NCBI GenBank assembly: GCA_050745345.1
Contig: JBOGJK010000257.1
Location: 1-32,161 of the forward strand
DNA from: Thermoanaerobaculia bacterium
GTDB lineage: Bacteria; Acidobacteriota; Thermoanaerobaculia; UBA5066; Gp7-AA6
DNA length: 32,161 nt
Direction: 5' to 3'
Shown: positions 3,128 through 28,729 of the stretch, piece by piece
How the letters are laid out: each line of letters opens with the position of its first letter
Position numbering within the stretch: position 1 is the first letter of the stretch
Translations under genes and position numbers: made by a program
The notes under the pieces: model-generated
What the model was told of the DNA's origin: nothing
Seen by the model: only the letters and a program-made list of their open reading frames with translations
Databases searched by the model: none

Positions 3128-4441
3128 ATGAATCGGAGCTCGCATGAAGCCCGCTGGTTCTGGGTCACGCTGCTGCTCTCGAGCATCAGCATCGTGGCCG
3201 TTGTCTTCGCCGCGTGGGAGCTGGCGGAGGGCCACTTCTTCCGCGACGTCGATTACGTGACGCTCCACTACCTGTACATCAGCCGCGGCGTGGCGTCCTC
3301 GCTGCTGCTCGCCGCGTGGGCGGCGTGGTACGTGCTGCGCCAGCGTCGCCGGAGCGAGGAGGAGCTGCGCCGATCTCGGGAGCACTATCGGCACCTCCTG
3401 GAAGCCTCCCCTGGTGCCGTGGCGCTCTACGATGTCGAGCTCCGGGTCACGGAATGGAACGCCGCCGCCGAAAGGCTCTACGGGTTCACGAAGGCGGAAG
3501 TCCTCGGCCACCGGCTTCCGACGGTTCTTGCGGACAGGGAAGAGGAGCTGCAACAGTTCTTGCGGGACGCACAGGAGGGACGGCCAGTCATCGAGGTCGA
3601 GACACGTCGTCGTGACAGCCGGGGCGAAAGTCTCGAAGTGCAGCTCACTCTGCTGCCATTTCGCGAGGTGCCGGGTCTCAATCTCTTTCTCGAGGTGACG
3701 ACGGACATCCGCGAGCGCGTCCGGCTGCGGCAGCGGCTGCTGGAGATCGAGAAGCTGACGAGCATGGGCAAGATGGCGGCGGGAACCGCGCACCACCTCA
3801 ACACGCCTCTGGCCGCTATGCTCCTGCGTGTGCAGATGATGCGGGAGCGCAGCCATCACGAACTCTGCCAGCCTGACCTCGAACGGTTGGAGAGCGACAT
3901 CCTCTACTGCCAGCAGTTCGTCCGGCGGCTGCTCGAGTTCGGGCGCCGGCCCGCCGCCCGGAAGGAGCCACAACCGATCGCCGACTGCCTCGCATCGGTT
4001 GTCGGATTTCTGGCGCCGGCGCTCGATGCCAAGAGCATCCGTCTCTCCCTCGACGTCGACGCGATCGATGACGACCAAGTGCTGGCCGACCGCAACCTGC
4101 TCGAGGCTCTGTTCCTCATTCTTCTCAGCAACGCGCTCGACGCCGTCTTCGACGGCGGCGAGATTGCCGTTCGATGTGGCCGGACGGACGAGGGTCGGAT
4201 CGAGGTTCGAATCGTCGACCAGGGCTTAGGCATCGCTCCCTCGGAGCTTCCGCATGTCTTCGAGCCGTTCTACACGACCAAGGGGCCGGGCAAAGGCACC
4301 GGGCTCGGCTTGGCCATCGCACGTAACATCGTCCTCGAGCACGGCGGCTCGATCCGCATCGAGAGCGAGCCGGAGCGCGGGACCGTCGCTCGCGTCGAGC
4401 TGCCGGTCTGGGGCCCCGAGGCCGGGGGAGCCAGGCCGTGA
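3128..4441 (+). CDS. Membrane sensor histidine kinase (2 TM, cytoplasmic PAS, HisKA, HATPase_c)
   Basis: Two N-terminal hydrophobic segments separated by a ~20-aa loop. PAS-like LLEASPGAVALYDVELRVTEWNAAAERLYGFTKAEVLG. H-box MGKMAAGTAHHLNTPLAAM. N and G boxes LLSNALDA, DQGLGI and GTGLGLAIARNIVLEHGG. Confidence 0.85.
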   Translation: MNRSSHEARWFWVTLLLSSISIVAVVFAAWELAEGHFFRDVDYVTLHYLYISRGVASSLLLAAWAAWYVLRQRRRSEEELRRSREHYRHLLEASPGAVALYDVELRVTEWNAAAERLYGFTKAEVLGHRLPTVLADREEELQQFLRDAQEGRPVIEVETRRRDSRGESLEVQLTLLPFREVPGLNLFLEVTTDIRERVRLRQRLLEIEKLTSMGKMAAGTAHHLNTPLAAMLLRVQMMRERSHHELCQPDLERLESDILYCQQFVRRLLEFGRRPAARKEPQPIADCLASVVGFLAPALDAKSIRLSLDVDAIDDDQVLADRNLLEALFLILLSNALDAVFDGGEIAVRCGRTDEGRIEVRIVDQGLGIAPSELPHVFEPFYTTKGPGKGTGLGLAIARNIVLEHGGSIRIESEPERGTVARVELPVWGPEAGGARP

Positions 4442-5817
4442 GCTCATCCTTTGCGCCGCACCCCTGCGGGATCCTCGTGGTCGACGACGACGCGCGGCTT
4501 GCCGCGACCCTTCAGGAGCTGTTGGTGGGGGAGGGCTACTCGGTCGAGGTGGCTCATTCGGCAGCAGAGGCGCTGGCGATCCATGAGCGCAACCCCGGCA
4601 TCGCCGTGGCGCTCGTCGACCTGATCATGCCGGTCACCGACGGCCTGACGCTTCTGGATGAGCTGCACCGGCGCGATCCGGACCTGGCGGTCGTCGTCAT
4701 GACGGGCTACGGCACGATCGAAACCGCCGTGGAGGCGATCAAGCGGGGCGCAGAGGACTATCTCACCAAGCCGATGGACTCGCACGCCCTGCGGAAAAAG
4801 ATGGCGCGCCTGCTGGAGGTCTTCGAACTGCGGGAGCGCGTGCGGCAGCTCGAAGCCAATCTCGATCGTGCCCCGTCCTTCGAGACGATCCTCTCCGTGT
4901 CAACCGCGATGCTTCGCGCTATCGAGCACGCGAAAACCGTCGCCGCCACCGACGCCTCAGTGCTTCTCATCGGCGAGACAGGCACCGGCAAGGAGATGAT
5001 GGCTCGGGCGATCCACGCGGCCAGCCCGCGGGCAGGCAGCGCCTTCCTACCGGTCAACTGCGGCGCGATTCCGCGCGAGCTGGTGGAGAGCGAGCTGTTC
5101 GGCGTCCGCCGCGGCGCCTTTACCGGCGCCTACGCCGATGCTCCAGGCATCTTCGTCACGGCGGGCGGAGGCACGGTCTTTCTCGACGAGATCGGCGAGA
5201 TGCCGAAGGAGGCGCAGGTCAAGCTGCTGCGGGTGCTCCAGGAGGGGGAGCTGCGGCCCGTCGGCAGCGCCAAGCTCGTGCAGGTCGATGTGCGGATCGT
5301 CGCGTCGTCCAACCGTCCGCTGGCGGCGCTGCGAGACGAGCACTTGCGGCCGGACCTCTATTTCCGAATCGCCACCGTGGTGATCGAGCTGCCGCCTCTG
5401 CGAGTGCGGCCGGAGGACGTGCTCGTGCTGGCGCACACGTTCATCGGCCGGATCTCGCGCCGCACGGGCCGCGAGATCACGCTGGCCCGCTCCGCGGCGG
5501 ACCTGCTCGTCCACTCCTCGTTTCCGGGCAACGTGCGCGAGCTCGAGAACGTCCTGGAGAGCGCGGTCGCGCTCTCGCGCGACGACCCGCACGTCATCAC
5601 CGAGAAGGACCTGGGCCCCCTCCTGCGCAAGTCCGAAGGCGCCCCGCTGCCGGGCCGCTTCAGCGAGCAGCCGCTCTCTCTCGAGACCCTGGAGCGTGCG
5701 GCGATCGAGCAGGCCCTGCGCCTTTGCCGGGGTAACCGCACGCGAGCGTCCTCTCTGCTCGGCATCTCCCGCGACACGCTCCACCGAAAGCTACGCCAGT
5801 ACCATCAGGAGGGCTGA
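4438..5817 (+). CDS. Sigma-54-dependent response regulator (NtrC family: REC + AAA+ + Fis-type HTH)
   Basis: GTG at 4438 overlaps the kinase stop (GTGA). REC domain ILVVDDD...VALVDLIMP. Walker A GETGTGKE. Sigma-54 contact loop GAFTGA. ESELFG, and C-terminal HTH RTRASSLLGISRDTLHRKLRQY. Confidence 0.9.
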   Translation: MSSSFAPHPCGILVVDDDARLAATLQELLVGEGYSVEVAHSAAEALAIHERNPGIAVALVDLIMPVTDGLTLLDELHRRDPDLAVVVMTGYGTIETAVEAIKRGAEDYLTKPMDSHALRKKMARLLEVFELRERVRQLEANLDRAPSFETILSVSTAMLRAIEHAKTVAATDASVLLIGETGTGKEMMARAIHAASPRAGSAFLPVNCGAIPRELVESELFGVRRGAFTGAYADAPGIFVTAGGGTVFLDEIGEMPKEAQVKLLRVLQEGELRPVGSAKLVQVDVRIVASSNRPLAALRDEHLRPDLYFRIATVVIELPPLRVRPEDVLVLAHTFIGRISRRTGREITLARSAADLLVHSSFPGNVRELENVLESAVALSRDDPHVITEKDLGPLLRKSEGAPLPGRFSEQPLSLETLERAAIEQALRLCRGNRTRASSLLGISRDTLHRKLRQYHQEG

Positions 5818-5842
5818 GAGCCCTCCGGGCCCCCCGGGGCTC
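5818..5842 (+). terminator. Weak GC-rich hairpin after the response regulator gene
   Basis: GAGCCCT...GGGGCTC forms 6 bp plus one G-U with an 11-nt loop immediately after the TGA. The only T-run (TTTT, 5854-5857) is about 12 nt away, so this is not a canonical intrinsic terminator. Confidence 0.25.
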
Positions 5843-6001
5843 CTGCTGTCAGGTTTTCGGACGCTGGCGGTTTTTCTGACGCGACGTCTTCTTCGCCGCG
5901 CGCGCGGCCGTTCCCCGCCGCGGTCGCCGGCCGGCCCGGGACTGGTTGCCGCGAAAGGTTCTCCCGTTACGGGTGGGCGTTGGGTGCTCCAGGAAGTCGG
6001 G

Positions 6002-6017
6002 TGGCAGATGGCGTGCA
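6002..6017 (+). promoter_or_regulatory. Candidate sigma-54 (-24/-12) promoter
   Basis: TGGCAGATGGCGTGCA has GG and GC at the exact consensus spacing of TGGCACG-N4-TTGC. It lies 185 nt downstream of the NtrC-type activator gene and 26 nt upstream of the GTG at 6043, which carries an AGGAAA Shine-Dalgarno at 6030-6035. An inverted repeat GTCAG(5848-5852)-N23-CTGAC(5876-5880) about 130-150 nt upstream could be an activator site. Confidence 0.45.
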
Positions 6018-6042
6018 ACGGAGCGAGCCAGGAAACGGTTCC

Positions 6043-7287
6043 GTGTCATCGCCACAAGCAGGACCCGCCGACAGCGGCAGCGGACCTTCGGGGGCCCGGC
6101 TGTGGATCCGGGTCCTGCTGGCGCTCGCGGCGGTCGGTCTTCTGCTCGCCGTTCTGCTCTGGGAGAGAAAGCAGTCGAAGAGCCGCTGGTCGTCGCTTGT
6201 CGCCGGGAGCCCTCGGGCCGGGGCGGAACTCTTTCAAACGAAGGGCTGCGCTTCCTGCCACAGCCCCGGAGCGGGACGGGCGAGCCAGGCCCCGGATCTG
6301 GCCGCCGATGGGTCGGGGCGTTCGGGGCCGGACCGACTGGTCACCGTGATGTGGAACCACGCTCCCCAGATGTGGGAGCGGATGCAAATGCAGAAGATCG
6401 TTCAGCCCGCTTTCAGCGAGCGGGAGATGGCCGACCTCCTCTCCTACGTCTACACGCTCCGATACGTCGGAGAGCCCGGCAACGCCGAACGGGGTCAGAG
6501 CCTCTTCGTCGAGAAGGGCTGCGTCGCCTGCCACCGCGTGCAGAGCGGAGGGGATCGCGCCCCCAAGGACGTCATCGTCCTCGACGCGATGATGACCGCT
6601 GTCGGCTGGGCGACGGCGATGTGGAACCACCCGGGCGCCAGCGACGCCGAACGGCCTCGCTTCGAAGGCCGCGAGATGAACGACATCTTGAGCTACGTCC
6701 GGGGCGGAGGGGCAGCCCCCAGGCTGGATGAGGACCTGCTGCGGGCGGATTTTGGACGCGGCTGGCAGGTCTTTCGGGACAAGTCGTGCGCCGCCTGCCA
6801 CTCGGTCAAGGACGAGGCCGGGCGCGTCGGTCCGGAGCTCGGGCCGGGCCGCCAGCTCCCGGCCACCATGCTCGAGCTTGCCGGCTCCATGTGGAACCAC
6901 TCCCCGGCGATGTTGCGGCAGATGGAGCATCTGCGCGTCGCGCGCGCCATCTTCCGCAAGCAGGAGATGGCCGACCTGCTCGCGTTTCTCTACAGCTTCC
7001 GCTACGCCGAGCCGGGAGGTTCCCCGAAGGTCGGCGAGGTGCTCTTCGCGGGTCGCAGTTGCAGCCACTGCCACGGGCGACGCGCACAGGGCACTCCTCA
7101 GGCACCGGGGCTTCGCGGGCGAGGCAGGAACTACACGGCGGTGACGATGGCGACGGCCCTCTGGCGGCACGGCCCCGCGATGTACCGGCGTGCCCAGGAT
7201 CTCGGCATGTCGTGGCCGCTTTTGGCCGAGAACGACGTCGGGGATCTGATCACTTTCCTGAACACGTCGCCGGAGGACGAGCGATGA
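6043..7287 (+). CDS. Membrane-anchored cytochrome c built from four tandem ~90-aa monoheme domains
   Basis: Four CxxCH motifs (CASCH, CVACH, CAACH, CSHCH), each followed about 35-40 residues later by MWNH or LWRH. The W codons sit at 6352, 6622, 6892 and 7162, exactly 270 nt apart. One N-terminal TM helix (LWIRVLLALAAVGLLLAVLLW). Start chosen at GTG 6043 because of the SD; the ORF is open from TTG 5980. Confidence 0.8.
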   Translation: MSSPQAGPADSGSGPSGARLWIRVLLALAAVGLLLAVLLWERKQSKSRWSSLVAGSPRAGAELFQTKGCASCHSPGAGRASQAPDLAADGSGRSGPDRLVTVMWNHAPQMWERMQMQKIVQPAFSEREMADLLSYVYTLRYVGEPGNAERGQSLFVEKGCVACHRVQSGGDRAPKDVIVLDAMMTAVGWATAMWNHPGASDAERPRFEGREMNDILSYVRGGGAAPRLDEDLLRADFGRGWQVFRDKSCAACHSVKDEAGRVGPELGPGRQLPATMLELAGSMWNHSPAMLRQMEHLRVARAIFRKQEMADLLAFLYSFRYAEPGGSPKVGEVLFAGRSCSHCHGRRAQGTPQAPGLRGRGRNYTAVTMATALWRHGPAMYRRAQDLGMSWPLLAENDVGDLITFLNTSPEDER

Positions 7288-7811
7288 CCGAGAAGCGCGC
7301 TCGATGGGTGGCGCCCGCTCTCGGCGTTCTGGTTCCCTTCATGATCACCGCGGCGGTGGTCGCCTTGCTTCCCTACCACGGGCCGACGAAGCCGGTCCGC
7401 CAGCCGATCGCCTTCAACCACCGCAAACACGTCGAGGAGGCCTCGCTGTCCTGTTCGACCTGCCACCAGTTCTACGAGACGGAGGCCTTCTCCGGGCTTC
7501 CGGCTGCCGACGTCTGCGCGGTCTGCCACCTCGAGCCCCAGGGCAAGAGCGCCGAGGAGCGCGAGCTTGTCCGGCTCTTGAAGGCGGGCACGCCGCTCGA
7601 CTGGAAGCCGCTCTTCCGCCAGCCGTCGCACGTGTACTCCTCGCATCGGCGCCACGTCGTGGTGGCCAAGCTCGACTGCCCGGTCTGCCACGGAGAGATC
7701 GGAAAGAGCAGGGAGCCGCCGTCGCGGGTGCGGCGCCTGGTCATGGAGGACTGCCTCGACTGCCACCGCCGCCGTGGCGTGTCGGCGGAATGCACGACGT
7801 GTCATCGATGA
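7284..7811 (+). CDS. Membrane-anchored pentaheme cytochrome c (c3/c7 class III type; ActA/QrcA-like position)
   Basis: ATG at 7284 overlaps the upstream stop (ATGA). N-terminal TM helix VAPALGVLVPFMITAAVVALL. Five CxxCH motifs (CSTCH, CAVCH, CPVCH, CLDCH, CTTCH) in 175 aa, plus IAFNHRKH. Confidence 0.8.
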   Translation: MTEKRARWVAPALGVLVPFMITAAVVALLPYHGPTKPVRQPIAFNHRKHVEEASLSCSTCHQFYETEAFSGLPAADVCAVCHLEPQGKSAEERELVRLLKAGTPLDWKPLFRQPSHVYSSHRRHVVVAKLDCPVCHGEIGKSREPPSRVRRLVMEDCLDCHRRRGVSAECTTCHR

Positions 7812-7830
7812 GCGACTTGTGGAGCGTGTG

Positions 7831-10257: not shown

Positions 10258-10259
10258 GC

Positions 10260-10961
10260 ATGGCGCGCTGGGCGATGGTGATCGATCTAGACCGCTGCAC
10301 GGCTTGCCAGGCCTGTGTTGTGGCGTGCCAGGCCGAGAACAATGTCCCGCCCGCCGGGCCGGAGCGCGCCGAGAGGGGTCGCGCGATCTCCTGGCTGCGA
10401 CTGGTTCCTTTCCAGGGAGGGGAGCACGGGACGGGGCCGGAGCTGCGGCTGGTGCCACTGCCGTGCATGCACTGCGAGCGCCCCCCGTGTACCCGCGTCT
10501 GCCCCGTGAAGGCGACGCAGATCGACCGGGAGGGCCTCGTCTCCCAGGTCTACCCCCGCTGCATCGGGTGCCGCTACTGCACGACCGCCTGTCCCTACAC
10601 GGTCCGCTATTTCAATTGGGATCGCCCGCAGTGGCCGCGCCCCATGGAGGACAGCTTGAGCCCGGACGTCTCGGTGCGGCCCAAGGGCGTCGTCGAGAAG
10701 TGCACGTTCTGCCACCACCGCCTGCAGCGCGCGCGCGACCGGGCCCGGGCGGAAGGCCGGCCGCTGCGGGAAGGCGACTACGTTCCGGCCTGCGTCGAGA
10801 CGTGTCCCGCGGAGGCGATGGTCTTCGGAGATCTCGACGATCCGCGCAGCGCCGTCTCCCGGCTGTCGCAGGGGCCGCGCGCCTTCCGGCTGCTCGAGGA
10901 GCTGGGGACCCGGCCGAAGGTCGTCTACCTGTCGAAAGGAGAATGGGGTGGAGAAGTTTGA
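10260..10961 (+). CDS. Four-cluster [4Fe-4S] ferredoxin-type subunit (PsrB/NrfC/ActB2/QrcC-like)
   Basis: ATG at 10260 follows AGGAGG. Four Cys groups: CTACQACVVAC, CMHCERPPCTRVCP, CIGCRYCTTACP and CTFCH...CVETCP. Confidence 0.85.
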   Translation: MARWAMVIDLDRCTACQACVVACQAENNVPPAGPERAERGRAISWLRLVPFQGGEHGTGPELRLVPLPCMHCERPPCTRVCPVKATQIDREGLVSQVYPRCIGCRYCTTACPYTVRYFNWDRPQWPRPMEDSLSPDVSVRPKGVVEKCTFCHHRLQRARDRARAEGRPLREGDYVPACVETCPAEAMVFGDLDDPRSAVSRLSQGPRAFRLLEELGTRPKVVYLSKGEWGGEV

Positions 10962-14145: not shown

Positions 14146-14233
14146 GAGGCGCTGTGGCAGCGAAGAGCGGGACACGCTCCGCGAGTGGGTCATTGTCGGC
14201 GGAGCCTGCGCGAACGGGGGGCCGCCCGATAGC

Positions 14234-15126: not shown

Positions 15127-15161
15127 GAACGGCGAAAGCGCGGGAATTCACGGAACGCCAA

Positions 15162-15191
15162 TTGATGCAGATACACCAGTGCCCTTAGGAT
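15162..15191 (+). promoter_or_regulatory. Possible sigma-70-type promoter in the only AT-richer gap upstream of the mtrC-like gene
   Basis: TTGATG (15162-15167), an 18-nt spacer, then TAGGAT (15186-15191). It sits 43 nt before the ATG at 15234, which carries a GGAGG SD. Both hexamers are weak matches. Confidence 0.25.
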
Positions 15192-15233
15192 GCGCCATCG
15201 AATAATCGGTTTCGAATCTCCGGAGGTGGTGCC

Positions 15234-17330: not shown

Positions 17331-17360
17331 GAGCGGTCGCTTGACCGCTCCTCCCTTTTT
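17330..17360 (+). terminator. Intrinsic terminator/attenuator-like hairpin between the mtrC-like and mtrA-like genes
   Basis: GGAGCGGTC-gctt-GACCGCTCC is a perfect 9-bp stem with a 4-nt loop, followed by TCCCTTTTT. It starts on the last base of the stop codon. The next start codon is at 17380. Confidence 0.6.
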
Positions 17361-17379
17361 CCGGAAGGACTGAGGTGGG

Positions 17380-18300
17380 ATGAGGCGCCGAGGCTCTCTT
17401 CCGCTTGCCGCGGCGGCGCTGGCCGCCGGGCTCCTTTCGGCGGGCAGCGTTGCGCGGGCGGAGGCTCCTGCTCCGACGCCCGGCGCCGGTCCGGCCGAGC
17501 CGCCGAAGTGCGCCGATTGCCACGAGGAGCAGGTGAAAACCTTCGCCGGCAACCCGCACGCCCGGTACTCGCACCGCGACAAGAAACCGGACCCCAACGA
17601 GATCTGCGCGACCTGCCACGGTGACGGCGCCAAGCACATTCAGGAGGGGGGAGATCCAAAGTTCATCCAGAGTTTCGACGGCGTCGCGGGGGCCGAGCTG
17701 TGCCTCTCCTGCCACGAGAAGAGCGACGAGCACGCCTCCTTCTCGACCGGGTTCCACGCCAACTCGGCCGCGGTGAACTGTCTGTCGTGCCATGCGATCC
17801 ACGGGGCCGTGAGGTCTAGCGAGCAACTGCTGGCGAAGACCCCCGGGCAGCTTTGCCAGAGCTGCCACACGGGCATTTCCGCCGCGCTTCGCAGCAAGCC
17901 CTACGTCCACCGGCTCGACCGGGGCGGGATGACGTGCCTCGACTGCCACGATCCGCACGACCGGAAGGGGCGGAGCGTCAAGTTGACGCGGGAAGGGGAG
18001 CTCGCCTGCCTGGAATGCCATGCGGAGAAGCGCGGCCCCTTCGTGTTCGACCACGTCACCGGCTCGGCCGGGGACTGCCTCTCCTGCCACGAGTCGCACG
18101 GGTCGAACAATCCGAAGATGCTTCAGTGGGCGCGCGTGGACAAGCTCTGCCTCTCCTGCCACTCGCAGACGGGAGGGCCGCCCACGGCGGGCGGGCAGCC
18201 CCCCTCCTTCCACGATCTGACGCTTCCGCGCTACCGCAACTGCACGACGTGCCACGTCGCGGTGCACGGGTCGAACCTGTCTCCGATGCTGCTGAAGTAG
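17380..18300 (+). CDS. Periplasmic decaheme cytochrome c, MtrA/DmsE-family-like
   Basis: Signal peptide ending ARA/EA. Ten evenly spaced CxxCH motifs in 306 aa, and a C-terminal CTTCHVAVHGSN resembling the MtrA-family ending. GAGGTGG SD. Confidence 0.8.
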   Translation: MRRRGSLPLAAAALAAGLLSAGSVARAEAPAPTPGAGPAEPPKCADCHEEQVKTFAGNPHARYSHRDKKPDPNEICATCHGDGAKHIQEGGDPKFIQSFDGVAGAELCLSCHEKSDEHASFSTGFHANSAAVNCLSCHAIHGAVRSSEQLLAKTPGQLCQSCHTGISAALRSKPYVHRLDRGGMTCLDCHDPHDRKGRSVKLTREGELACLECHAEKRGPFVFDHVTGSAGDCLSCHESHGSNNPKMLQWARVDKLCLSCHSQTGGPPTAGGQPPSFHDLTLPRYRNCTTCHVAVHGSNLSPMLLK

Positions 18301-18306
18301 GACCGT

Positions 18307-20259
18307 ATGCGACGAGCCGTCCGCCTGCCGTCTGCCGCCCTGGCGCTGCTCCTCGGAGGCGCGCCTGCCCTCGAGGCCGAAGAGATCCCGGTGGAGTTCG
18401 AGCTCGGCTACCGCTTCGTGGATGTCTCGGGCAACGAACAGATGTACCGCACGCAGATCAACGACCGGCCGGGGGTGCTGCTGCGGTCCCTCTCCTGGGA
18501 CTCGACGGCCCCCCCGAGTCGCTTCTTCGATTACGCCCACCTCGACGTTTCCGACGTGGGCGCGGGCCCCGCCGGGATGCTGCGCTTCCGGGCGGGGCAG
18601 GTGGACACTTTTCGGCTCTCCTTCACCTGGCGGCGCACGAACCTCTACAGCGCGCTGCCGGCATTTGCCAACCCGTTTCTGGAGGAGGGGATCGTCCCCG
18701 GCCAGCAGAGCTACAACCGCGTGCGCGACATCTACGACGCGACACTCGAGATCTTCCCGGGCAAGAAGTTCACGCCGATCCTCGGCTACACGCGTAACGT
18801 CTATGGAGGCCCGGGACGCACGACCTACCACGTCGGGGAGAACGAGTTCGCCCTGGACCAGGAGGTCCACTCCCGTGACGAGGAGTACCGCGTGGGCCTC
18901 GCCTTCGACGTCGGGCCGGTCCGGGGTCAGGTCATCCAGGGGTGGCGGCGCTACCGGTGGGACGACACGGCGACGCTGCGAGCGGGCGAGAACGACGGGA
19001 ACATCTCTTTCCCGATCCTCGGCCAGGAGATCACGGCCGACGGCATCGATCGGACGACCGAGAACCGCACCAACACGCCGGTCACCAGCGTCTGGGTCGC
19101 GGGCCAGCCGCTCTCGCGGGTCAAGCTCGTCGGAAGTTACGTCCGCGCCGACGCGAGCGGTGAAACGACCTCAACCGAGGAGGACGCGGGCAACTTCGTC
19201 TCCTTCCAGATTGCCCGTTTCTTCAAGGGGCTGGAGGAGACGATCAGCGCGCAGGCCGACACGGAGTACTGGCGCGGTTCCGTGCGCGCGGACGTGAACC
19301 TGGCGCCCAACGTCGATTTCACGGGCGGCTGGACGGAGAAGAGCCGCACGCTCGAGGGCCAGGCCCTGCTCTCGAGCCTGTATCTGGACACCGTGACCTA
19401 CGGCGGCATCGCCGTCGGCGACCTGCTCCAGGCGATCCAGGACGACACGGCGCTCGACCGGACCGACCGCACGTTCGACGCGACGGTGACGGCGCGGCTG
19501 ATCGGCCCCCTGGCGGCCAACGCGGGATGGTCGCAGACCCGTCAGAACGTGACGTTTTCCGGCGGCGGCTCCGAGCTGCTGGCGGAGGAGGCCGGGGAGG
19601 AGTTCACCCGGACGGTCAACACCTTTGGCGCCGGCTTCACGTTCTCGAAGGCCGGCCTGACGCTCGCGGGAGACTACCGGCGCGACGATGCCAATCGGCC
19701 GATCCTTCGGACCGATTTCGCGGACCGCGACCGCTTGAAGTTCCGCGTCGCCTACTCGTGGAAGGACCTGCTCCGACTCGGCGGAACCTGGCGGGAGGCC
19801 CGCGCCGACAACAACGTTCCGCAGATCGGCTACGAAACGAGGGTGCGCGAGGTCGCCGGAGACCTGGAAGTCGGCCCGATCGGGAAGATTCTGACGCTCC
19901 GTGCCTCGGCCGGTGAGTTCCGGGTGGACCGCGAGATCCTGATCCGAGTGCCTCAGGACTTCGACATCGTGCCCACGGTCCAGAAGGAGATCGGGCACAC
20001 GTGGGAGGGAGGGCTGCGGCTGGCCTGGCAGCGGCTCCTCGTGGACGGCGCGTACCTCTGGATGGGCAACGGCGGCTCCATTCCCTTCACGATCAACCGG
20101 GTGCGCGCCCGCGCCGAATACGGCATCCGGCCGAACATCGGGGTCGTCGGCGAGTGGCTCCGGGACCAGTACAGCGAGGACCCCGCCTTCGACCAGGCCG
20201 GACCGCTCGCCGACTACGACGCGAACCGGTACGGAATCTTCATCCACTGGCGGCCGTGA
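18307..20259 (+). CDS. Outer-membrane beta-barrel protein, MtrB/PioB-family-like
   Basis: Starts 7 nt after the decaheme gene. Signal peptide, 650 aa, no heme motifs and no Cys. Many short amphipathic stretches rich in aromatic and charged residues (YRFVDVS, FRLSFTWRR, YRVGLAFDV, LKFRVAYSW) and an aromatic C-terminus (GIFIHWRP). The call relies largely on context and composition. Confidence 0.6.
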   Translation: MRRAVRLPSAALALLLGGAPALEAEEIPVEFELGYRFVDVSGNEQMYRTQINDRPGVLLRSLSWDSTAPPSRFFDYAHLDVSDVGAGPAGMLRFRAGQVDTFRLSFTWRRTNLYSALPAFANPFLEEGIVPGQQSYNRVRDIYDATLEIFPGKKFTPILGYTRNVYGGPGRTTYHVGENEFALDQEVHSRDEEYRVGLAFDVGPVRGQVIQGWRRYRWDDTATLRAGENDGNISFPILGQEITADGIDRTTENRTNTPVTSVWVAGQPLSRVKLVGSYVRADASGETTSTEEDAGNFVSFQIARFFKGLEETISAQADTEYWRGSVRADVNLAPNVDFTGGWTEKSRTLEGQALLSSLYLDTVTYGGIAVGDLLQAIQDDTALDRTDRTFDATVTARLIGPLAANAGWSQTRQNVTFSGGGSELLAEEAGEEFTRTVNTFGAGFTFSKAGLTLAGDYRRDDANRPILRTDFADRDRLKFRVAYSWKDLLRLGGTWREARADNNVPQIGYETRVREVAGDLEVGPIGKILTLRASAGEFRVDREILIRVPQDFDIVPTVQKEIGHTWEGGLRLAWQRLLVDGAYLWMGNGGSIPFTINRVRARAEYGIRPNIGVVGEWLRDQYSEDPAFDQAGPLADYDANRYGIFIHWRP

Positions 20260-20301
20260 GCCGATAGGATTCCCGCCCGCGGTTGCCGAAGGAGGAATCG
20301 G

Positions 20302-20589
20302 ATGAGAATACGGAGTTCACGGCTTGCTTTGACGGCGGCGCTTCTCTTCTGGGGAGGGTGGGTCGCGTTCTCAGGATCGTCCTCGGCCTCGCTCGACACC
20401 CAGAAGCAGGCGAAGGCGGCCGGCGTCGACGCGAAGAACTGCCTGTACTGCCACGTCGACAAGCTGCCCAAGAAGGAAGCGCATGAGTTAAACGACGCCG
20501 GCAAGTGGCTCGTGGCCGAGAAGGAGAAGCGCAAGGCCGACAAAGTCGACGGCGCCTGGTTGAAGGACTATCCCGGCGGCAAAAAGTAG
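20302..20589 (+). CDS. Small (95 aa) mono-CxxCH protein, Lys/Glu-rich; tandem paralog 1
   Basis: AAGGAGGA SD, N-terminal hydrophobic segment and a single NCLYCH motif. The C-terminal WLVAEKEKRKADKVDGAWLKDYPGGKK is conserved with the next gene. Confidence 0.7.
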   Translation: MRIRSSRLALTAALLFWGGWVAFSGSSSASLDTQKQAKAAGVDAKNCLYCHVDKLPKKEAHELNDAGKWLVAEKEKRKADKVDGAWLKDYPGGKK

Positions 20590-20619
20590 CCTTCCGAATC
20601 TCGAGCGGGAGGTCGAATC

Positions 20620-20907
20620 ATGAGGAGAGCGGCTTCGAGGCTGGGTCTCGCGGCGCTCCTGCTGAGCTGGTCCGGTTGGCTTCTTCTGACCGGAACCTCC
20701 TCGGGCACCCTTCCCATGCAGAAGAAGGCCAGGGAGCTGGGCTTCGCGGCGGAAAACTGCCTCTACTGCCACGGAGAGAAGTTGCCGAAGAAGGAGGCCG
20801 TCTCATACAACGACCGCGGCAAGTGGCTGATCGCGGAAAAGGAGAAGCGGAAGGCTGCGGAAGTCGACATGGCCTGGCTCAAGGACTATCCGGGCGAGAA
20901 GAAATAG
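20620..20907 (+). CDS. Small (95 aa) mono-CxxCH protein; tandem paralog 2
   Basis: GGGAGG SD and the same length as the preceding gene. 60 of 95 residues are identical by manual alignment, including NCLYCH, KLPKKEA, GKWL.AEKEKRKA and AWLKDYPG. Confidence 0.7.
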   Translation: MRRAASRLGLAALLLSWSGWLLLTGTSSGTLPMQKKARELGFAAENCLYCHGEKLPKKEAVSYNDRGKWLIAEKEKRKAAEVDMAWLKDYPGEKK

Positions 20908-21025
20908 CGCCCGAGTGTCTCCGCGCGCCGTCGCAAGCGGCGCACCCGGGAGGGCGATCGCCCGTCCGGAGGTCGCCGGCGTCGCGGCTGCAACGCGCCT
21001 GCGGCGGTTCTTTCGACGGAAACCG

Positions 21026-22270
21026 ATGAAGCTCCCACTGGCCGTCGTTGCCTTGTCCTTGGCTGGCGCCTCGCTCGCGAACGCGGCGGAGCCGGTCGGA
21101 CCCCCGCCGAACGAAGACTGCCTCACATGCCACGGGGAAACCGACGCCAGCCGCTCCGACGGCCGATCGGTGTTCCTCGCCAAGGAGAAGTTCGCCTCAT
21201 CGGTCCATGGCGAAGCCGGTCTGGCCTGCGTGGACTGCCATGCGGATCTCGCGAAAGCGAGGGAGTTTCCGCACGCCGAGAAGCTCGCCCCGGCGCAGTG
21301 CGCGAGCTGCCACGGCGACGTCGTGTCGGACTACGGAAAGAGCGTGCATGCCGACGCGCGCCGGAAAGAAGGCGCGAGCCTCGCGGCCAGCTGCGCCGAC
21401 TGTCACGGGTCCCACGACATCCGGCCCTCCAAGGATCCCGCGTCTCGAACCTATGCCCTGAACCTGCCCTCGACCTGCGCAAACTGCCACGGCAATCCCG
21501 ACGTGATCCGGAAGGGGCACATCGCGATCGGCAACGTCGCGGCGCTCTACGAGGACAGCATCCATGGCCGCGCCGTCTTGAAGAGCGGTCTCGTCACGGC
21601 GCCCAACTGCAAGACTTGCCACGGGATGCACGACATCCGCCGCGCCGCCGACCCGGCGGCCAGGGTCTTCCGCGGCAATCTTCCGTCCAACTGCGGATCG
21701 TGCCACCAGGGCATCCTCCGCCTCTATGAGCAGGGCATCCACGGCACGCTCTTCCGCGGGGGCGACAAGCGCGTTCCCGTCTGCACCGATTGCCACACGG
21801 CGCACGACATCCGCCAGGTGGAGGTCCAGGGATGGCGCCTGGAGGTCCTCAGGGAATGTGGAACCTGCCACGGGGAGCCGCAGGAGACCTTCCGGGATAC
21901 GTACCATGGACAGGTGACGAACCTCGGCTTCGAGCGGATCGCCACCTGTTCCGACTGCCACAGGGCTCACGACATCTTTCCCGAGGCCGACCGGCGCTCG
22001 ACGGTCTCGGCCGCCGGGCGTGTCGCGACGTGCCAGAAGTGTCACCCCGGAACCAATGAGAAGTTCGCCCTCTACGATCCGCATCCCAACCCGAAGGACC
22101 GCTCGCGCAACCCGCTCCTCTTCTACGCCGCGATCTTCATGAAGTGGCTGCTCATCGGCGTCATGGCGTTCTTCGGGCTGCACGCGGTCCTCTGGTTCCC
22201 GCGCTCCTGGCGCGCCCGGCGCGAGGGCGATGGCTCGGAGCCGCCGGCCCGGAAGGGAGAGAAAAAATGA
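21026..22270 (+). CDS. 11-heme cytochrome c with C-terminal membrane anchor
   Basis: Start chosen at the ATG giving a signal peptide (MKLPLAVVALSLAGASLANA/AEP). Eleven CxxCH motifs, several in the recurring form CxxCHGxHDI. C-terminal TM helix LLFYAAIFMKWLLIGVMAFFGLHAVLWF. Confidence 0.75.
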   Translation: MKLPLAVVALSLAGASLANAAEPVGPPPNEDCLTCHGETDASRSDGRSVFLAKEKFASSVHGEAGLACVDCHADLAKAREFPHAEKLAPAQCASCHGDVVSDYGKSVHADARRKEGASLAASCADCHGSHDIRPSKDPASRTYALNLPSTCANCHGNPDVIRKGHIAIGNVAALYEDSIHGRAVLKSGLVTAPNCKTCHGMHDIRRAADPAARVFRGNLPSNCGSCHQGILRLYEQGIHGTLFRGGDKRVPVCTDCHTAHDIRQVEVQGWRLEVLRECGTCHGEPQETFRDTYHGQVTNLGFERIATCSDCHRAHDIFPEADRRSTVSAAGRVATCQKCHPGTNEKFALYDPHPNPKDRSRNPLLFYAAIFMKWLLIGVMAFFGLHAVLWFPRSWRARREGDGSEPPARKGEKK

Positions 22271-23106
22271 CGGGCGACGCCTCGGCGGGAACCCTCCGGC
22301 GCTACGTCCTGCGGTTCGACCGGTTCGACCGCTTTCTCCATTTCCTGTTGATGGTCACCTTCCTCGGGCTCTCGCTGACGGGGCTGCCGCTGCTCTTCTC
22401 GACACACGGCTGGGCCGCCGTGCTCGCCCGTCTGCTCGGCGGGTTCCGCGGCGCGGGGTTGCTCCATCGGACCTTCGCCGTGGGCATGCTCGCCTGCTTC
22501 GGGATGCACCTCGCGCGGCTCGCCTACCGCCTCCTCGCCAGGCGGGACTGGGGGATTCTCTGGGGCCCGCACTCCATGGTGCCTCAGCCCCGGGACTTCG
22601 TTCAGCTCTTCCAGAACTTCCGCTGGTTTCTGGGCCGCGGCGCGCGGCCGAAGTTCGACCGCTACACCTACTGGGAGAAGTTCGACTACTGGGCGGTCTT
22701 CTGGGGCATGGGGATCATCGGCGGCTCGGGGTTGATCCTCTGGTTCCCGAAGTTCTTCGCCCGGGTCCTGCCCGGCACGGCGTTCAACCTGGCCCTCCTC
22801 ATCCATGGAGAGGAGGCGCTGCTCGCCGTCTGCTTCATCTTCACGATCCACTTCTTCAACAGCCACCTGCGGCCCGAGAAGTTCCCGATCGACAGGGTCA
22901 TCTTCACCGGCGTGGTTCCCGAGGAGGAGCTGCGCCACGAGCGCCCGGCGGAGTACGAGCGGATCCGGGAGAGCGGGCGCCTCGAGGGTCTCATTTCGGA
23001 GCCGCCGACAGCGACCGTGCTCAAGCGGGCCAACATCTCGACCGCCGTCGCCGTATCCTTCGGTCTCGTGCTCGTTTTGCTGACGATCTTCGCGCTGCTA
23101 GGCTAG
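22267..23106 (+). CDS. Membrane b-type cytochrome (FdnI/HydC/Ni-hydrogenase cytochrome b-like)
   Basis: ATG overlaps the upstream stop (ATGA). Multiple TM helices carry conserved-looking His residues (FLHFLLM, LLHRTF, LLIHGEE, IHFFNSH). No CxxCH. Confidence 0.7.
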   Translation: MTGDASAGTLRRYVLRFDRFDRFLHFLLMVTFLGLSLTGLPLLFSTHGWAAVLARLLGGFRGAGLLHRTFAVGMLACFGMHLARLAYRLLARRDWGILWGPHSMVPQPRDFVQLFQNFRWFLGRGARPKFDRYTYWEKFDYWAVFWGMGIIGGSGLILWFPKFFARVLPGTAFNLALLIHGEEALLAVCFIFTIHFFNSHLRPEKFPIDRVIFTGVVPEEELRHERPAEYERIRESGRLEGLISEPPTATVLKRANISTAVAVSFGLVLVLLTIFALLG

Positions 23107-23163
23107 ACCCTGCGGGCGGGAGCCGGCTGCGCGCAGAGGTCCGACCCGAGGAGGTCCGCACTC

Positions 23164-24618
23164 ATGGCCAAGGCATCCCGCGAGCGGGTATCGGGCCTTC
23201 TCCGGCCGGCGGTCTTCTTCACTCACAACGCGATCTCCCAGATCGGCGTGATCCTCACGACGAGCGCGGCCGTCACGCTGCTCGCCTTCTGGGCGTACCT
23301 GATCGTGCAGGCCCGGCCCGTGCACCCCTACACCGGCATCGTCTTCTTCTTGATCCTTCCCGGCGTCTTCGCCCTCGGACTCCTCCTGATTCCGCTCGGC
23401 GCCATCCTGCGCCGCCGGAAGCTTCGCGCCCGGGGAGAGCTGCCCCACGAATATCCGAAGATCGACCTCCGCAGCCCCTCTCTGCGCCGGGCGCTCCTGC
23501 TGGTCGCGGGCCTGACCTTCGTCAACTTCGCGATCATGGGAGCGGCCTCGTACAAGGGGGTCGAGTACATGGATTCGGCTCAGTTCTGCGGGCAGACCTG
23601 CCACACGGTCATGTCCCCCGAGTACACGGCCTACGTCAACTCGCCTCACTCGCGGGTTGCCTGTGTGGAGTGCCACATCGGGCCGGGGGCGCCCTGGTTC
23701 GTGAAGGCGAAGATCTCCGGCGTTCGCCAGGTCTTCGCCGTCACTCTGAAGACCTACAGCCGGCCGATCCCTTCGCCTGTCCGGGAGCTTCGGCCCGCGC
23801 GGGAGACCTGCGAGCATTGTCACTGGCCTCAGAAGTTCACGGGCGACAAGTTCCTCGTGCGCACGAAGTACGGCGACGACGAGCAGAACACGCCGTCGAC
23901 GACGGTTCTGTTGCTGAAGATCGGCGGGCGGACGGCCCAGGGGTTGGTGGGCATTCACGGCCGGCACCTCGACACGATCGAGCGGATCGAATACCTGTCC
24001 ACCGATGGCCGCCGGCAGGTCATCCCGAGGGTGGCCTACGTCGACGACGATGGAAAGAAGGTGGAGTACGTTTCGACCGACGTGAAACCCACACCGGAGC
24101 AGCTCGCCCGCGGAGAGCGCCGCAAGATGGACTGCATGGACTGCCACAACCGGCCCACGCACGCCTTCGAGATGCCGGAACGGGCCGTCGACACGGCCAT
24201 GACCGACGGCCGGATCAGCAAAGACCTGCCTTACATCAAGAGAGAGGCTGTGGCGGCGTTGCGCGCCGAGTACCCCAATCGCGCGACGGCGTCCGAGCGG
24301 ATCCCCCGGACGCTGGTCGAGTTCTACCGGACGAAGTATCCGCAGGATTATCAGAACCGCCGGGCTTCCGTCGAGGCGGCTTCCGACCAGGTCAAGGCGA
24401 TCTATCTGCGAAACGTCTTTCCGGAGATGCAGGTCACCTGGGGGACGCACCCGAACAACATCGGCCACGAGGACTTCCTCGGCTGCTTCCGCTGCCACGA
24501 CGGAAAGCACAAGAGCTCCGACGGCCGCGTCATCAACGACGACTGCGAGGCGTGCCACCAGATCCTGGCGATGGAGGAGAAAGAGCCGAAGATCCTGGCG
24601 GACCTCGGGCTGAATTGA
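23164..24618 (+). CDS. Membrane-anchored hexaheme cytochrome c with NapC/NirT-like N-terminal heme block
   Basis: GAGGAGG SD and three N-terminal hydrophobic helices. Motifs CGQTCH (CxxxCH), CVECH, CEHCH, CMDCH, CFRCH and CEACH. The spacing of the first motifs, with ...ACVECHIGPG...K.SG...ETCEHCHWP, resembles quinol-dehydrogenase NapC/NirT/NrfH relatives. Confidence 0.7.
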   Translation: MAKASRERVSGLLRPAVFFTHNAISQIGVILTTSAAVTLLAFWAYLIVQARPVHPYTGIVFFLILPGVFALGLLLIPLGAILRRRKLRARGELPHEYPKIDLRSPSLRRALLLVAGLTFVNFAIMGAASYKGVEYMDSAQFCGQTCHTVMSPEYTAYVNSPHSRVACVECHIGPGAPWFVKAKISGVRQVFAVTLKTYSRPIPSPVRELRPARETCEHCHWPQKFTGDKFLVRTKYGDDEQNTPSTTVLLLKIGGRTAQGLVGIHGRHLDTIERIEYLSTDGRRQVIPRVAYVDDDGKKVEYVSTDVKPTPEQLARGERRKMDCMDCHNRPTHAFEMPERAVDTAMTDGRISKDLPYIKREAVAALRAEYPNRATASERIPRTLVEFYRTKYPQDYQNRRASVEAASDQVKAIYLRNVFPEMQVTWGTHPNNIGHEDFLGCFRCHDGKHKSSDGRVINDDCEACHQILAMEEKEPKILADLGLN

Positions 24619-28695: not shown

Positions 28696-28729
28696 TCGGT
28701 CGCCGCCCGCACACCATCCGGATCGCGAC

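Follow-up and report, generated by a model that had tools for sequence, protein, structure and literature searches.

We report the analysis of a multiheme cytochrome locus in the contig JBOGJK010000257.1, which is a complete 32,161-bp contig of an NCBI metagenome-assembled genome (MAG, assembly GCA_050745345.1) labelled Thermoanaerobaculia bacterium (Acidobacteriota); this whole contig is called the window below. On the whole, the region 3128-24618 is well supported as a real locus of extracellular electron transfer (EET), and it is a composite of two modules, module A (3128-14106) and module B (15234-24618). Module B encodes an Mtr-type outer-membrane conduit together with inner-membrane oxidases resembling those of Geobacter, and module A encodes a complex related to Qrc and to alternative complex III (ACIII), with its own cytochromes and its own regulators. 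We put the probability at about 0.5 that the two modules work as one EET system, leading electrons from menaquinol to extracellular acceptors. The host is an acidobacterium of soil or sediment.

In the proposed route, menaquinol would be oxidised by any of three inner-membrane modules, two of them being oxidases of Geobacter type (a split CbcL and an ImcH homologue) and the third being the Qrc/ACIII-like complex, whose operon would be switched on from a -24/-12 promoter by a kinase and a sigma-54 activator. The electrons would then pass to soluble or anchored periplasmic cytochromes (c4B, c554, sc1/sc2 and the 11-heme subunit, all described below), from these to MtrA and then to MtrC, with the MtrA-type decaheme threaded through a 26-strand MtrB-type barrel and the MtrC-type decaheme capping it outside, and MtrC would deliver them to acceptors outside the cell, Fe(III)/Mn(IV) minerals among them. 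Each of the three entry points is probably suited to its own range of redox potential or its own conditions. What the data show is the protein family or fold of each component, the order of the genes, the conservation of both modules and the conserved promoter; we infer the physical partners, the co-expression of modules A and B, the direction in which electrons flow and whether the molybdopterin-like subunit holds a cofactor.

The heme motifs give the first evidence for the locus. The window has a G+C content of about 68%, and genes were chosen by third-position G+C with all frames read; all genes across 3128-24618 lie on the plus strand. A six-frame scan of the window detects 56 CXXCH motifs on the plus strand and one on the minus strand, the latter (at 27056) being outside the region. 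Among the 56, 54 are in frame in 10 cytochrome open reading frames, one (at 10701) is a Cys motif of a 4Fe-4S protein and one (at 10444) is out of frame. Since 54 are in frame against one out of frame and none on the minus strand of the region, a chance origin of the heme motifs is ruled out. In addition there are two CX3CH sites, CTSQCH in a c554-like protein and CGQTCH in the ImcH-like protein, so that the 56 heme-attachment motifs in 10 proteins counted in a preliminary description of this locus are confirmed as 54 in-frame CXXCH plus two CX3CH. In module A the CXXCH are distributed as four in c4A, five in the QrcA-like protein, four in c4B and three (plus CTSQCH) in the c554-like protein; in module B there are 10 in the MtrC-like and 10 in the MtrA-like protein, one each in sc1 and sc2, 11 in the 11-heme cytochrome and five (plus CGQTCH) in the ImcH-like protein.

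Each component call of the preliminary description was tested and essentially upheld, the domains being seen by Pfam and NCBIfam. Its picture of the locus as one contiguous and self-contained block on one strand is kept in part: the genes are co-oriented over 3128-24618, but the coding is broken by a pseudogene (14229-15127), which parts two tightly packed gene sets (about 6100-14106 and 15234-24618), and instead of a single block we find two modules, each with a history and a promoter of its own, which in this lineage have come together on either side of the pseudogene. Gene starts were re-set for the QrcB-like protein (7831), the QrcC-like protein (10260), the 11-heme cytochrome (21026), the cytochrome b subunit (22267) and, probably to about 6100, for c4A.

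Outer-membrane conduit and inner-membrane oxidases of module B

The first gene of module B encodes a decaheme cytochrome of the OmcA/MtrC family (15234-17330). It matches TIGR03507 of NCBIfam with 488.8 bits against a cut-off of 209.3 and over the full length of the model (positions 4-672 of 672), Pfam finds the domain II/IV family PF22113 twice (E-value 4.5e-53), and among PDB sequences it matches MtrF (3e-34) and OmcA (1e-21). Its 10 CXXCH form two pentaheme sets, with five at residues 216-350 and five at residues 524-680. A look-up of its exact sequence gave no record of this protein. The next gene (17380-18300) encodes a periplasmic decaheme cytochrome of the DmsE/MtrA family, 306 aa in length with a Sec signal and 10 CXXCH, which passes TIGR03508 narrowly (197.2 bits against 192.2) and matches chain A of 6R2Q, the MtrA of the Mtr complex structure, with an E-value of 1.4e-31. 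A comparison of N-termini shows that the MtrC-like protein has a signal peptide and no lipoprotein (lipobox) Cys after it, where proteobacterial MtrC has one. This Cys is missing in nearly all Thermoanaerobaculia homologues of MtrC, with a possible exception in the Holophagales locus L009 ('SPRLCAAPGE'), while the gammaproteobacterial homologues have LxxC.

The third gene (18307-20259, its protein being on record with 100% identity under locus tag ACRD3M_06095) starts 6 nt after the MtrA-like gene, and the same order is kept in related loci. We conclude, with the reserve due to a predicted model, that it encodes a very diverged MtrB-type outer-membrane barrel. The direct profile comparisons do not point this way. 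The protein has no MtrB/PioB match in Pfam (PF11854, even at E<=10), in NCBIfam or among PDB sequences, while in the same Pfam run six gammaproteobacterial barrels from related loci, used as a control, score 341-416 bits on MtrB_PioB; a home-made hidden Markov model (HMM) of gammaproteobacterial MtrB does not place it; and when the Thermoanaerobaculia barrels are aligned directly against gammaproteobacterial MtrB by hhalign, the probability is 1% (E-value 0.047). We built an alignment of 38 barrel homologues and made an AlphaFold2 model, which has a mean pLDDT (the model's own confidence score) of 80.5 and 26 beta-strands. In a Foldseek search of the PDB with this model, the top match is MtrB (6R2Q_B) with an E-value of 4.4e-15 and a TM-score of 0.62, and the next matches are 22-strand TonB-dependent transporters with TM-scores of 0.45 or less. 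Moreover, hhalign links the window-type barrels to those of Bryobacterales with a probability of 100% (E-value 1.7e-43), and the Bryobacterales barrels to gammaproteobacterial MtrB, which are MtrB_PioB members, with a probability of 90% (E-value 1.8e-6); one Bryobacteraceae barrel reaches 21.7 bits on PF11854, just below the cut-off of 23. It is the predicted fold together with this transitive profile-profile chain via Bryobacterales that leads us to the assignment.

Therefore, the MtrC/MtrA/MtrB-like conduit of the preliminary description is borne out by curated HMMs for MtrC and MtrA, and not by an MtrB profile for the barrel, for which predicted structure and transitive profiles speak instead; profile searches place two-thirds of 15234-20259 in the Mtr families. 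Compared with Shewanella MtrCAB (6R2Q), the order mtrC-mtrA-mtrB, the scores of MtrC and MtrA above the cut-offs and the 26-strand barrel with MtrB as its best structural match are shared. Unlike in Shewanella, the window barrel has no detectable sequence similarity to MtrB profiles and contains zero Cys, hence lacks the N-terminal CXXC of the gammaproteobacterial consensus (WxCxxCPF), and the window MtrC is without the lipoprotein Cys. In all, 312 homologues of the barrel were found in soil and sediment metagenomes. Since the barrel is invisible to the MtrB models of Pfam and NCBIfam, cluster surveys that depend on an MtrB HMM are expected to miss this clade.

Two small genes follow the barrel. 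The first, sc1 (20302-20589), encodes a small secreted monoheme cytochrome of no known family (one CXXCH in 95 aa), for which NCBIfam gives no match and Pfam gives just a sub-threshold DUF2024 (20 bits against a cut-off of 27). The second, sc2 (20620-20901), is its tandem paralogue, also with one CXXCH and with 78% nucleotide identity to sc1 over 100 nt (repeat family D10); no described family in Pfam or NCBIfam is matched by either of the two. A homologue of sc1 lies directly 3' of the barrel gene in most Thermoanaerobaculia loci.

The inner-membrane tier of module B starts with an 11-heme periplasmic cytochrome (21026-22270), which has a signal peptide, 11 CXXCH, matches to multiheme Pfam families and a C-terminal membrane anchor with a transmembrane (TM) segment near residues 365-383. 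Next to it is a dihaem cytochrome b subunit of FdnI/HydC type (22267-23106), matched by PF01292 (32.3 bits against a cut-off of 30.1) and by FdnI (1KQF_C, E-value 3.3e-4), with candidate His ligands of the two b hemes in the predicted TM1, TM2 and TM4. The stop codon of the former and the start codon of the latter overlap as ATGA. This two-gene split is kept in all eight relatives examined, with the ATGA overlap in seven of them, while single-gene fused CbcL-like versions are found in other Thermoanaerobaculia loci (L067 and L068). Judging from the sequences, the two genes appear to be the c-type and b-type halves of a split CbcL whose translation would be coupled. The multiheme-c plus cytochrome-b pair described earlier is thus supported by the PF01292 and FdnI matches, and is more precisely a split CbcL/MtoC/MtrH. 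Like Geobacter CbcL/MtoC/MtrH, it combines a periplasmic multiheme c part (11 hemes in the window, 3-23 in the family) with a HydC/FdnI-like dihaem b part; the difference is that CbcL/MtoC/MtrH is a single polypeptide, whereas the window has two ATGA-overlapping genes.

The last gene of module B (23164-24618) encodes an ImcH homologue. ImcH homologues are reported to have three N-terminal TM helices, an atypical CX3CH by TM3, and then 5-9 CXXCH (PMC6295460). The window protein has TM segments at residues 24-42, 53-71 and 107-125, the CX3CH of heme 1 (CGQTCH) at 142, directly past the third helix, and then five CXXCH. Its NapC/NirT core is matched by PF03264 over residues 110-198 (E-value 9e-10) and by NrfH (2J7A_C) over residues 110-221 (E-value 1.4e-4). 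For the ImcH of Geobacter sulfurreducens, His137 of heme 1, an unusual distal Gln179, and the conserved Lys173, Tyr188 and Glu127, the last in TM3, have been described (preprint 10.1101/2023.05.03.539133). The window has H147, Q189, K183, Y198 and D137 at the ImcH spacings (+42, +36, +51 and -10), compared by published residue numbers and not by alignment, and all five positions are invariant in 27 homologues. There is no ImcH model in NCBIfam or Pfam and no ImcH chain in the PDB, and the assignment rests on architecture and residue spacing. The AlphaFold2 model of this protein has a mean pLDDT of 53.6, with the heme domain below 50, so only its three N-terminal helices are trusted. At least 7,999 ImcH-like homologues occur in soil and sediment metagenomes.

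What had been described as a NapC/NirT-like hexaheme therefore has the NapC/NirT core, according to Pfam and NrfH, and is more precisely an ImcH homologue with five CXXCH and one CX3CH. It shares with the ImcH of G. sulfurreducens the three TM helices, the CX3CH after TM3, the NapC/NirT/NrfH core and the equivalents of Gln179, Lys173, Tyr188 and Glu127. Geobacter ImcH has six canonical CXXCH and the window homologue has five, which is within the homologue range of 5-9 (PMC6295460). Besides, the window homologue is encoded beside mtrAB-type genes, in contrast to a 2018 survey which found this for no imcH (PMC6295460). In Desulfuromonas acetexigens, ImcH and CbcL homologues have consecutive accession numbers, suggesting adjacent genes. 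Module B is therefore Geobacter-like in its inner-membrane tier, which consists of an ImcH homologue and a split CbcL/MtoC/MtrH. The window locus has no CymA as in Shewanella, its inner-membrane tier being made of ImcH, split CbcL and the Qrc-like complex, and the overall picture is a hybrid route in which a Shewanella-type outer-membrane conduit is joined to Geobacter-type inner-membrane oxidases. As a separate observation, a tandem run of GGGAGAC-type heptamers (repeat family D17) is located at 24624-24662, right after the stop codon of the ImcH-like gene.

The Qrc/ACIII-like complex of module A and its control

Module A begins with two regulatory genes. The first encodes a membrane-anchored PAS sensor histidine kinase (3128-4441; Pfam PAS, HisKA and HATPase_c, with an N-terminal TM segment), and the second, whose start overlaps the kinase stop by 4 nt, encodes an NtrC-type sigma-54-dependent response regulator (4438-5817; Pfam Response_reg, Sigma54_activat with an E-value of 1.6e-60, AAA_lid_14 and HTH_8). 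The kinase also adjoins the response regulator and the Qrc-like operon in the related loci L001, L067-L070 and L074. We aligned the intergenic regions between the regulator and c4A from six genomes (the window, L001, L067, L069, L070 and L074). A sigma-54 type -24/-12 promoter TGGCAGATGGCGTGCA is found at 6002-6017 on the plus strand, some 85 nt before the point where c4A probably starts; it was first met as a match with two mismatches in a scan, and the pattern TGGC-N8-[G/T]TGC is at the same aligned position in 6/6 genomes. About 130 nt 5' of it is a conserved upstream repeat of TTTTCGGAC / TTTTCTGAC half-sites (5848-5881, plus strand), conserved in the same alignment and a putative enhancer (upstream activating sequence, UAS). 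Because both the promoter and the upstream repeat are conserved, the kinase/activator pair looks dedicated to the operon from c4A to c554. The two-component/sigma-54 control pair named earlier is thus confirmed by its Pfam domains, and the operon that follows is preceded by the conserved -24/-12 promoter. A sigma-54 consensus scan of the whole window gives 19 matches against 22 expected, which shows no enrichment.

The seven genes after the regulators overlap or abut, in the order c4A, pentaheme, molybdopterin-family, iron-sulfur, NrfD-family, c4B and c554-like. The c4A gene (5980-7287, with the real start probably near 6100; homologue gene calls have 399-420 aa) encodes a membrane-anchored protein with a TM segment at 41-59 and four class-I cytochrome c domains (Pfam Cytochrom_C four times, 4 CXXCH), and in three of the four domains a MWNH motif stands about 34 residues past the CXXCH. 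The pentaheme cytochrome (7284-7811) is QrcA/ActA-like, with five CXXCH and an N-terminal anchor (TM segment 11-29), and matches the QrcA family of NCBIfam with an E-value of 1.8e-28 (99 bits against a cut-off of 180). The QrcB-like subunit of the molybdopterin-oxidoreductase family (7831-10257) carries a twin-arginine translocation (Tat) signal (SRRRFLG), the FS0 Cys motif and the domains Molybdop_Fe4S4, Molybdopterin and Molydop_binding, and has 277 bits on the NCBIfam QrcB model against a cut-off of 440. The QrcC-like four-cluster iron-sulfur subunit (10260-10961; Pfam 4Fe-4S dicluster domains) has an E-value of 9e-94 on QrcC (313 bits against 400), with 183 bits on DsrO. The quinone-interacting membrane subunit of the NrfD family (10948-12288) is of ActC/QrcD type: Pfam NrfD is matched with an E-value of 5e-34, ten hydrophobic segments are seen and 10 TM helices predicted, and it matches the ActC of four solved ACIII complexes (6F0K_C with 2.6e-65, 6LOD_C, 6BTM_C and 8K9E_C) with E-values from 1e-60 to 3e-65, while on NCBIfam it scores higher on DsrP (127 bits) than on QrcD (57 bits, with a cut-off of 570). 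Finally, c4B (12281-13534) encodes a secreted protein with a signal peptide and four class-I cytochrome c domains (Cytochrom_C four times, E-value 3e-38; 4 CXXCH), and the last gene (13531-14106) encodes a c554-like periplasmic tetraheme with three CXXCH and CTSQCH (Pfam Cytochrome_C554 E-value 3e-26; NCBIfam Cyt554 115 bits, below the cut-off), a gene that closes module A in every homologous locus.

The Qrc-like genes are thus in the order A-B-C-D and overlapping or adjacent. All four subunits miss the NCBIfam equivalog cut-offs for Qrc, and still Qrc is the best family for A, B and C. With the ActC match of 2.6e-65 and Qrc as the top NCBIfam family, below cut-offs, for three of the four subunits, the earlier call of an NrfD-type, ACIII/Qrc-like module is sustained. 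The unit resembles Desulfovibrio QrcABCD and ACIII in having an anchored multiheme c, a Tat-exported molybdopterin-like, a four-cluster iron-sulfur and a 10-helix NrfD subunit. It differs from the one or the other in several respects: QrcA is a hexaheme anchor, whereas the window has a pentaheme as in ActA; the ActB of ACIII is a fused B1+B2, whereas the B1-like and B2-like proteins of the window are encoded by separate genes; the operon has no ActD, ActE or ActF and no second NrfD-like gene as ACIII has; and it adds the class-I tetrahemes, the c554-like cytochrome and its own sigma-54 two-component system.

The QrcB-like subunit (7831-10257) deserves a closer look, as it could also be read as an active molybdenum or tungsten (Mo/W) enzyme, in which case module A would act in the periplasm as the terminal reductase or oxidase of a soluble compound (of arsenate, polysulfide or thiosulfate type) and not as an electron-transfer hub. 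Its best matches in the PDB, ArrA (1e-55) and the PsrA of Thermus (2.5e-53), are far better than ActB, and the protein has kept intact its Tat signal and its 4Fe-4S Cys motif at the N-terminus. The Mo-ligand Cys of ArrA aligns to Glu188 of this protein, and at this position 111 of 120 homologues have an acidic residue (62 Glu and 49 Asp) and none the ArrA-type Cys. Asp is the ligand of Mo in NarG-type enzymes. To judge by the alignment, the canonical Cys ligand is lost in this subunit, but the conserved acidic residue could still ligate a metal. The Cys/Sec/Ser ligand being lost nevertheless speaks against an active enzyme, and so do the top NCBIfam match, which is the cofactor-less QrcB, and the number of hemes, since the 16 CXXCH and one CX3CH in the four cytochromes of the operon exceed the needs of a simple reductase. 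The membrane partner is also of the 10-helix ActC/QrcD type, a group which pairs with cofactor-less 'catalytic' subunits (PMC6303296). We therefore regard an active Mo/W enzyme as improbable, and a subunit of a Qrc/ACIII-like quinone-interacting complex as the preferred reading.

Genomic contexts and the joining of the two modules

We then examined how the two modules are distributed in other genomes. From the Mtr side, a search with the MtrC-like query and one genome per species gives 66 loci, mostly from Acidobacteriota and some from Gammaproteobacteria, onto which the window proteins were mapped. The core of these loci is MtrC-MtrA-barrel. In many Thermoanaerobaculia loci the core is followed by sc1/sc2 and the triad of 11-heme cytochrome, cytochrome b and ImcH, and the triad is also found near MtrAB-C in two gammaproteobacterial loci. 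In L002, L004, L008 and L055 the order is HpnA, squalene-synthase-like gene, the Mtr cassette, a minus-strand gene, dxs, ispH and HpnL, with L008 being without the triad. The window shows the same surroundings, as hopanoid/isoprenoid genes flank the locus on both sides (18-2555 and 24726-29791), namely HpnA (421 bits, above the cut-off) and a squalene-synthase-like gene upstream and dxs, ispH and an HpnL-like gene downstream. From these gene orders, module B is a conserved Thermoanaerobaculia cassette within a hopanoid gene cluster, and this cluster is the ancestral setting of the Mtr cassette. Apart from this, two tandem MtrC-MtrA-barrel sets are seen in L009 (10001-20246), and extra paralogue pairs of the 11-heme cytochrome and cytochrome b are seen in L003, L019 and L046 (about 15800-20800), between sc2 and the ImcH-like gene.

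From the side of module A, contexts were retrieved via QrcB-like homologues, which gives nine contexts including the window and L001. They span Thermoanaerobaculia and Vicinamibacteria, and module A is kept as a 9-gene block across them. In eight of the nine, module A stands beside Mtr-type, MtrC-domain, ImcH-like, CbcL-like or other multiheme cytochrome genes; L073, where Rieske/cytochrome b genes and a multiheme gene are downstream, is the least convincing of the eight. In L070, module A is directly followed, after c554 and on the same strand, by MtrC-MtrA-barrel-sc-sc; in L074 it is followed by two MtrC-like genes; in L067 and L068 the genes after it are an ImcH-like one in convergent orientation and two of fused CbcL-like type; and in L072 a 1147-aa MtrC-domain cytochrome is downstream. 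In L071 of Vicinamibacteria, MtrA and a true MtrB_PioB barrel are upstream of module A and a NapC/NirT gene of CymA size is downstream. The 814-aa barrel of L071 (427-2871) is a bona fide Pfam MtrB_PioB member, which means that module A pairs with canonical and diverged Mtr barrels alike. NnrS/ScdA genes adjoin module A in L070 and L074. A first impression from the 66 Mtr-side loci, that module A is rarely associated with Mtr, was revised after these contexts had been retrieved.

The shuttles of module A point in the same direction. The c4B protein is 32-34% identical to a tetraheme whose gene is directly downstream of the MtrB-like barrel gene in Bryobacterales loci, and this post-barrel tetraheme fits the 'c-cyt group 5' accessory of PMC8805035. 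Taken together, the eight of nine contexts and this homology argue for, though they fall short of proving, a tie in function between module A and Mtr. We further suggest, tentatively and as a proposal more likely wrong than right, that Acidobacteriota possess an unrecognised sigma-54-switched quinol:cytochrome c oxidoreductase of Qrc/ACIII-like type, which has its own class-I tetraheme and c554 shuttles and is a dedicated inner-membrane partner of Mtr-type conduits, replacing CymA/NetBCD. At any rate, a Qrc/ACIII-like complex with a conserved sigma-54 switch recurs beside Mtr-type cytochromes in Acidobacteriota and is a candidate third quinol interface. If it feeds Mtr, this bears on the energy conserved by mineral respirers. 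If the proposal is true, the Qrc/ACIII-like partner might be electrogenic, as Qrc and ACIII are, and with ImcH and CbcL there would be three potential-tuned entry points into one outer-membrane wire. These predictions are testable thanks to Thermoanaerobaculum aquaticum, a member of the class which is in culture and reduces Fe/Mn.

Several observations weigh against a single route through both modules, in addition to the missing lipoprotein Cys of MtrC and the silence of the MtrB profiles reported above. Module A is within 10 kb of Mtr in one of the 66 loci (L001), being absent within this distance of MtrC in the other 65, and in L001 it is inverted relative to Mtr, at 86% nucleotide identity. 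In L069 it is alongside nos genes of nosD/nosZ type and not alongside Mtr. It has its own regulators and promoter, and no sigma-54 element comparable to that promoter was found in front of module B, upstream of either the MtrC gene or the 11-heme gene. Furthermore, the junction between A and B is recent in this contig, where module A is bracketed by the pseudogene and a 32-nt direct repeat.

The pseudogene (14229-15127, plus strand), which parts the two modules, is a copy of the squalene-synthase-like gene with two frame changes, its tblastn matches being in three frames. By blastn, 1653-2518 matches 14238-15095 with 86% identity over 868 nt, the intact copy being 1383-2555. No relative comes as near to either copy (79% or less) as the copies come to each other, and for this reason the duplication is lineage-specific; a xenologous origin of one copy was considered and is unsupported, the copies being closest to each other. 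An assembly chimera was also considered, this being a MAG contig, and is unlikely, for the copies are 86% and not fully identical, both junctions consist of unique sequence and decay is seen in one of the copies. The 32-nt direct repeat TAGTCTGTCTnGTTCGGnCTAnnnGTTGACAG has its left copy at 2816-2847 and its right copy, which overlaps the c554 stop codon, at 14104-14135, both on the plus strand. It is imperfect, with two exact pattern matches in the window against 0 expected, and the two sites remain similar across 46 nt. None of the 66 Mtr-side loci contains the repeat even when six mismatches are allowed, it has no shared or unusually stable fold, and no Rfam family is found in the whole window. 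The repeat may mark the boundary of an insertion, or may be an operator or promoter common to both places. Module A contains no integrase or transposase, and a terminator and sigma-70 scan of 13900-15300 gives nothing convincing.

These observations could be put together in another way, with module B alone being the EET system and module A staying outside the Mtr route as a general sigma-54-regulated quinol:cytochrome c oxidoreductase, a functional analogue of ACIII which would feed class-I cytochromes of the periplasm for other acceptors such as nitrous oxide (N2O) reductase or oxidases, its position by MtrCAB here being due to a recent rearrangement. The own regulators and promoter, the near absence from the Mtr-side loci, the inversion in L001, the bracketing by the direct repeat and the duplicated gene, the nos genes of L069 and the Rieske/cytochrome b genes which module A precedes in L073 would all be in accordance with this, as would the NrfD subunit, which is nearest to the ActC of ACIII. 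Against it are the eight of nine QrcB-side contexts that abut multiheme genes of the kinds listed above, the MtrCAB genes following c554 directly in L070, and the homology of c4B to the Bryobacterales tetraheme. On balance we consider such a separate role of module A doubtful, although it carries real weight, and we keep a two-module EET system as the leading interpretation.

Direction of flow, related systems and neighbouring genes

For the two-module system, an outward flow, i.e. mineral reduction, is favoured because of the MtrC-type surface cytochrome, the ImcH homologue and the cultured Fe/Mn reducer in the class. ImcH homologues are reported solely from Fe(III) reducers (PMC6295460), and the cultured relative T. 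aquaticum is described as an iron reducer with MtrC and MtrA genes, noted in a MAG (PMC9671151). We agree with the preliminary description that the direction of flow cannot be read from the sequence, and this too tells against a firm statement of the outward route.

In the opposite case of inward or two-way flow, the Mtr conduit would take electrons from Fe(II), reduced minerals, humics, a cathode or a partner cell, and these would go through high-potential class-I cytochromes to the Qrc/ACIII-like complex reducing menaquinone, or onward to an oxidase or N-oxide reductase. The class-I domains, the c554-like cytochrome and the Qrc/ACIII-type complex leave room for this or a bidirectional reading, and the domains of c4A and c4B have the conserved, Met-containing MWNH motif. 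In nitrifiers, c554-type cytochromes pass electrons towards a membrane cytochrome of NapC/NirT type. The neighbours of some copies of module A may be counted here as well, namely NnrS/ScdA genes (L070, L074) and nos genes (L069). From the literature, class-I domains (probably His/Met and high-potential) and complexes of the ACIII type are usual features of oxidising chains, and ACIII is part of Fe(II)-oxidiser models (PMC5566968); Desulfovibrio Qrc is a menaquinone reductase and runs towards quinone reduction (PMC6303296); and homologues of CbcL/MtoC/MtrH and CymA are found in reducers and oxidisers alike (PMC6295460). However, the MtrC-type surface decaheme and the ImcH homologue are hallmarks of reducers, the cultured class member reduces Fe/Mn, and the window lacks genes for an oxidase, Cyc2 or carbon fixation. 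An inward or two-way flow is thus unlikely in our view, and outward flow is retained as the favoured direction.

As for the relation to known systems, the nearest described clusters include the Group 5 MtrCAB of Bryobacterales (PMC8805035, Baker et al. 2022), which are in the same phylum, have homologous barrels (E-value 1.7e-43) and carry a c4B-type tetraheme with the cluster. They are reported without an inner-membrane quinone oxidoreductase near mtrCAB, whereas the window has three candidates, and they place the c4B-type tetraheme after mtrB, whereas the window places it in module A. That survey took all three mtrCAB genes as a cluster for its criterion, its acidobacterial matches are Bryobacterales or unclassified Acidobacteriia, and its text never mentions Thermoanaerobaculum. 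The clusters netBCD-pdsA-mtrCAB of Aeromonas/Vibrio (PMC8805035) and cymA-mtrH-mtrCAB of Rhodoferax (PMC6295460) are alike in bringing together a quinol dehydrogenase (NrfD/NrfC-type or CbcL-type), a shuttle and MtrCAB. Unlike netBCD, the NrfD module of the window has a molybdopterin-like subunit and an ActC-like 10-helix subunit, i.e. it is of the Qrc/ACIII type and not NrfBCD; in place of PdsA the window has class-I tetrahemes, a c554-like cytochrome and monohemes as shuttles; and an ImcH homologue is added.

The preliminary description had considered it unusual to find all tiers in one block. This novelty is weakened, since complete-route clusters such as cymA/netBCD-pdsA-mtrCAB and cymA-mtrH-mtrCAB are already described (PMC8805035, PMC6295460), and what looks new is the combination of ImcH, CbcL, the Qrc/ACIII-like complex and Mtr. 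Our literature search found no description of the Thermoanaerobaculia cassette, nor of a Qrc/ACIII-like unit linked to Mtr. In other words, the parts are known and the combination, a Shewanella-type conduit with two Geobacter-type oxidases and a separately regulated Qrc/ACIII-like complex, is new, while it is not a new type of system.

Beside the locus, the minus-strand gene at 24726-25646 encodes a conserved 306-aa protein, which is 80-91% identical in relatives and always beside dxs. It has no family in Pfam or NCBIfam, contains two EEARH motifs and matches weakly the diiron tRNA hydroxylase MiaE (8FHB_A, E-value 2e-4); a possible reading is a diiron oxygenase of ferritin-like type with an isoprenoid or hopanoid as its substrate. 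On the other side, a non-coding or small-ORF stretch at 2625-2779, downstream of the intact squalene-synthase gene, has matches of 68-73% at unrelated positions in relatives, including L001 at 21708-21862 (reversed, downstream of the ImcH-like gene) and L029 at 6414-6584. These scattered matches hint at further rearrangements around the cassette.

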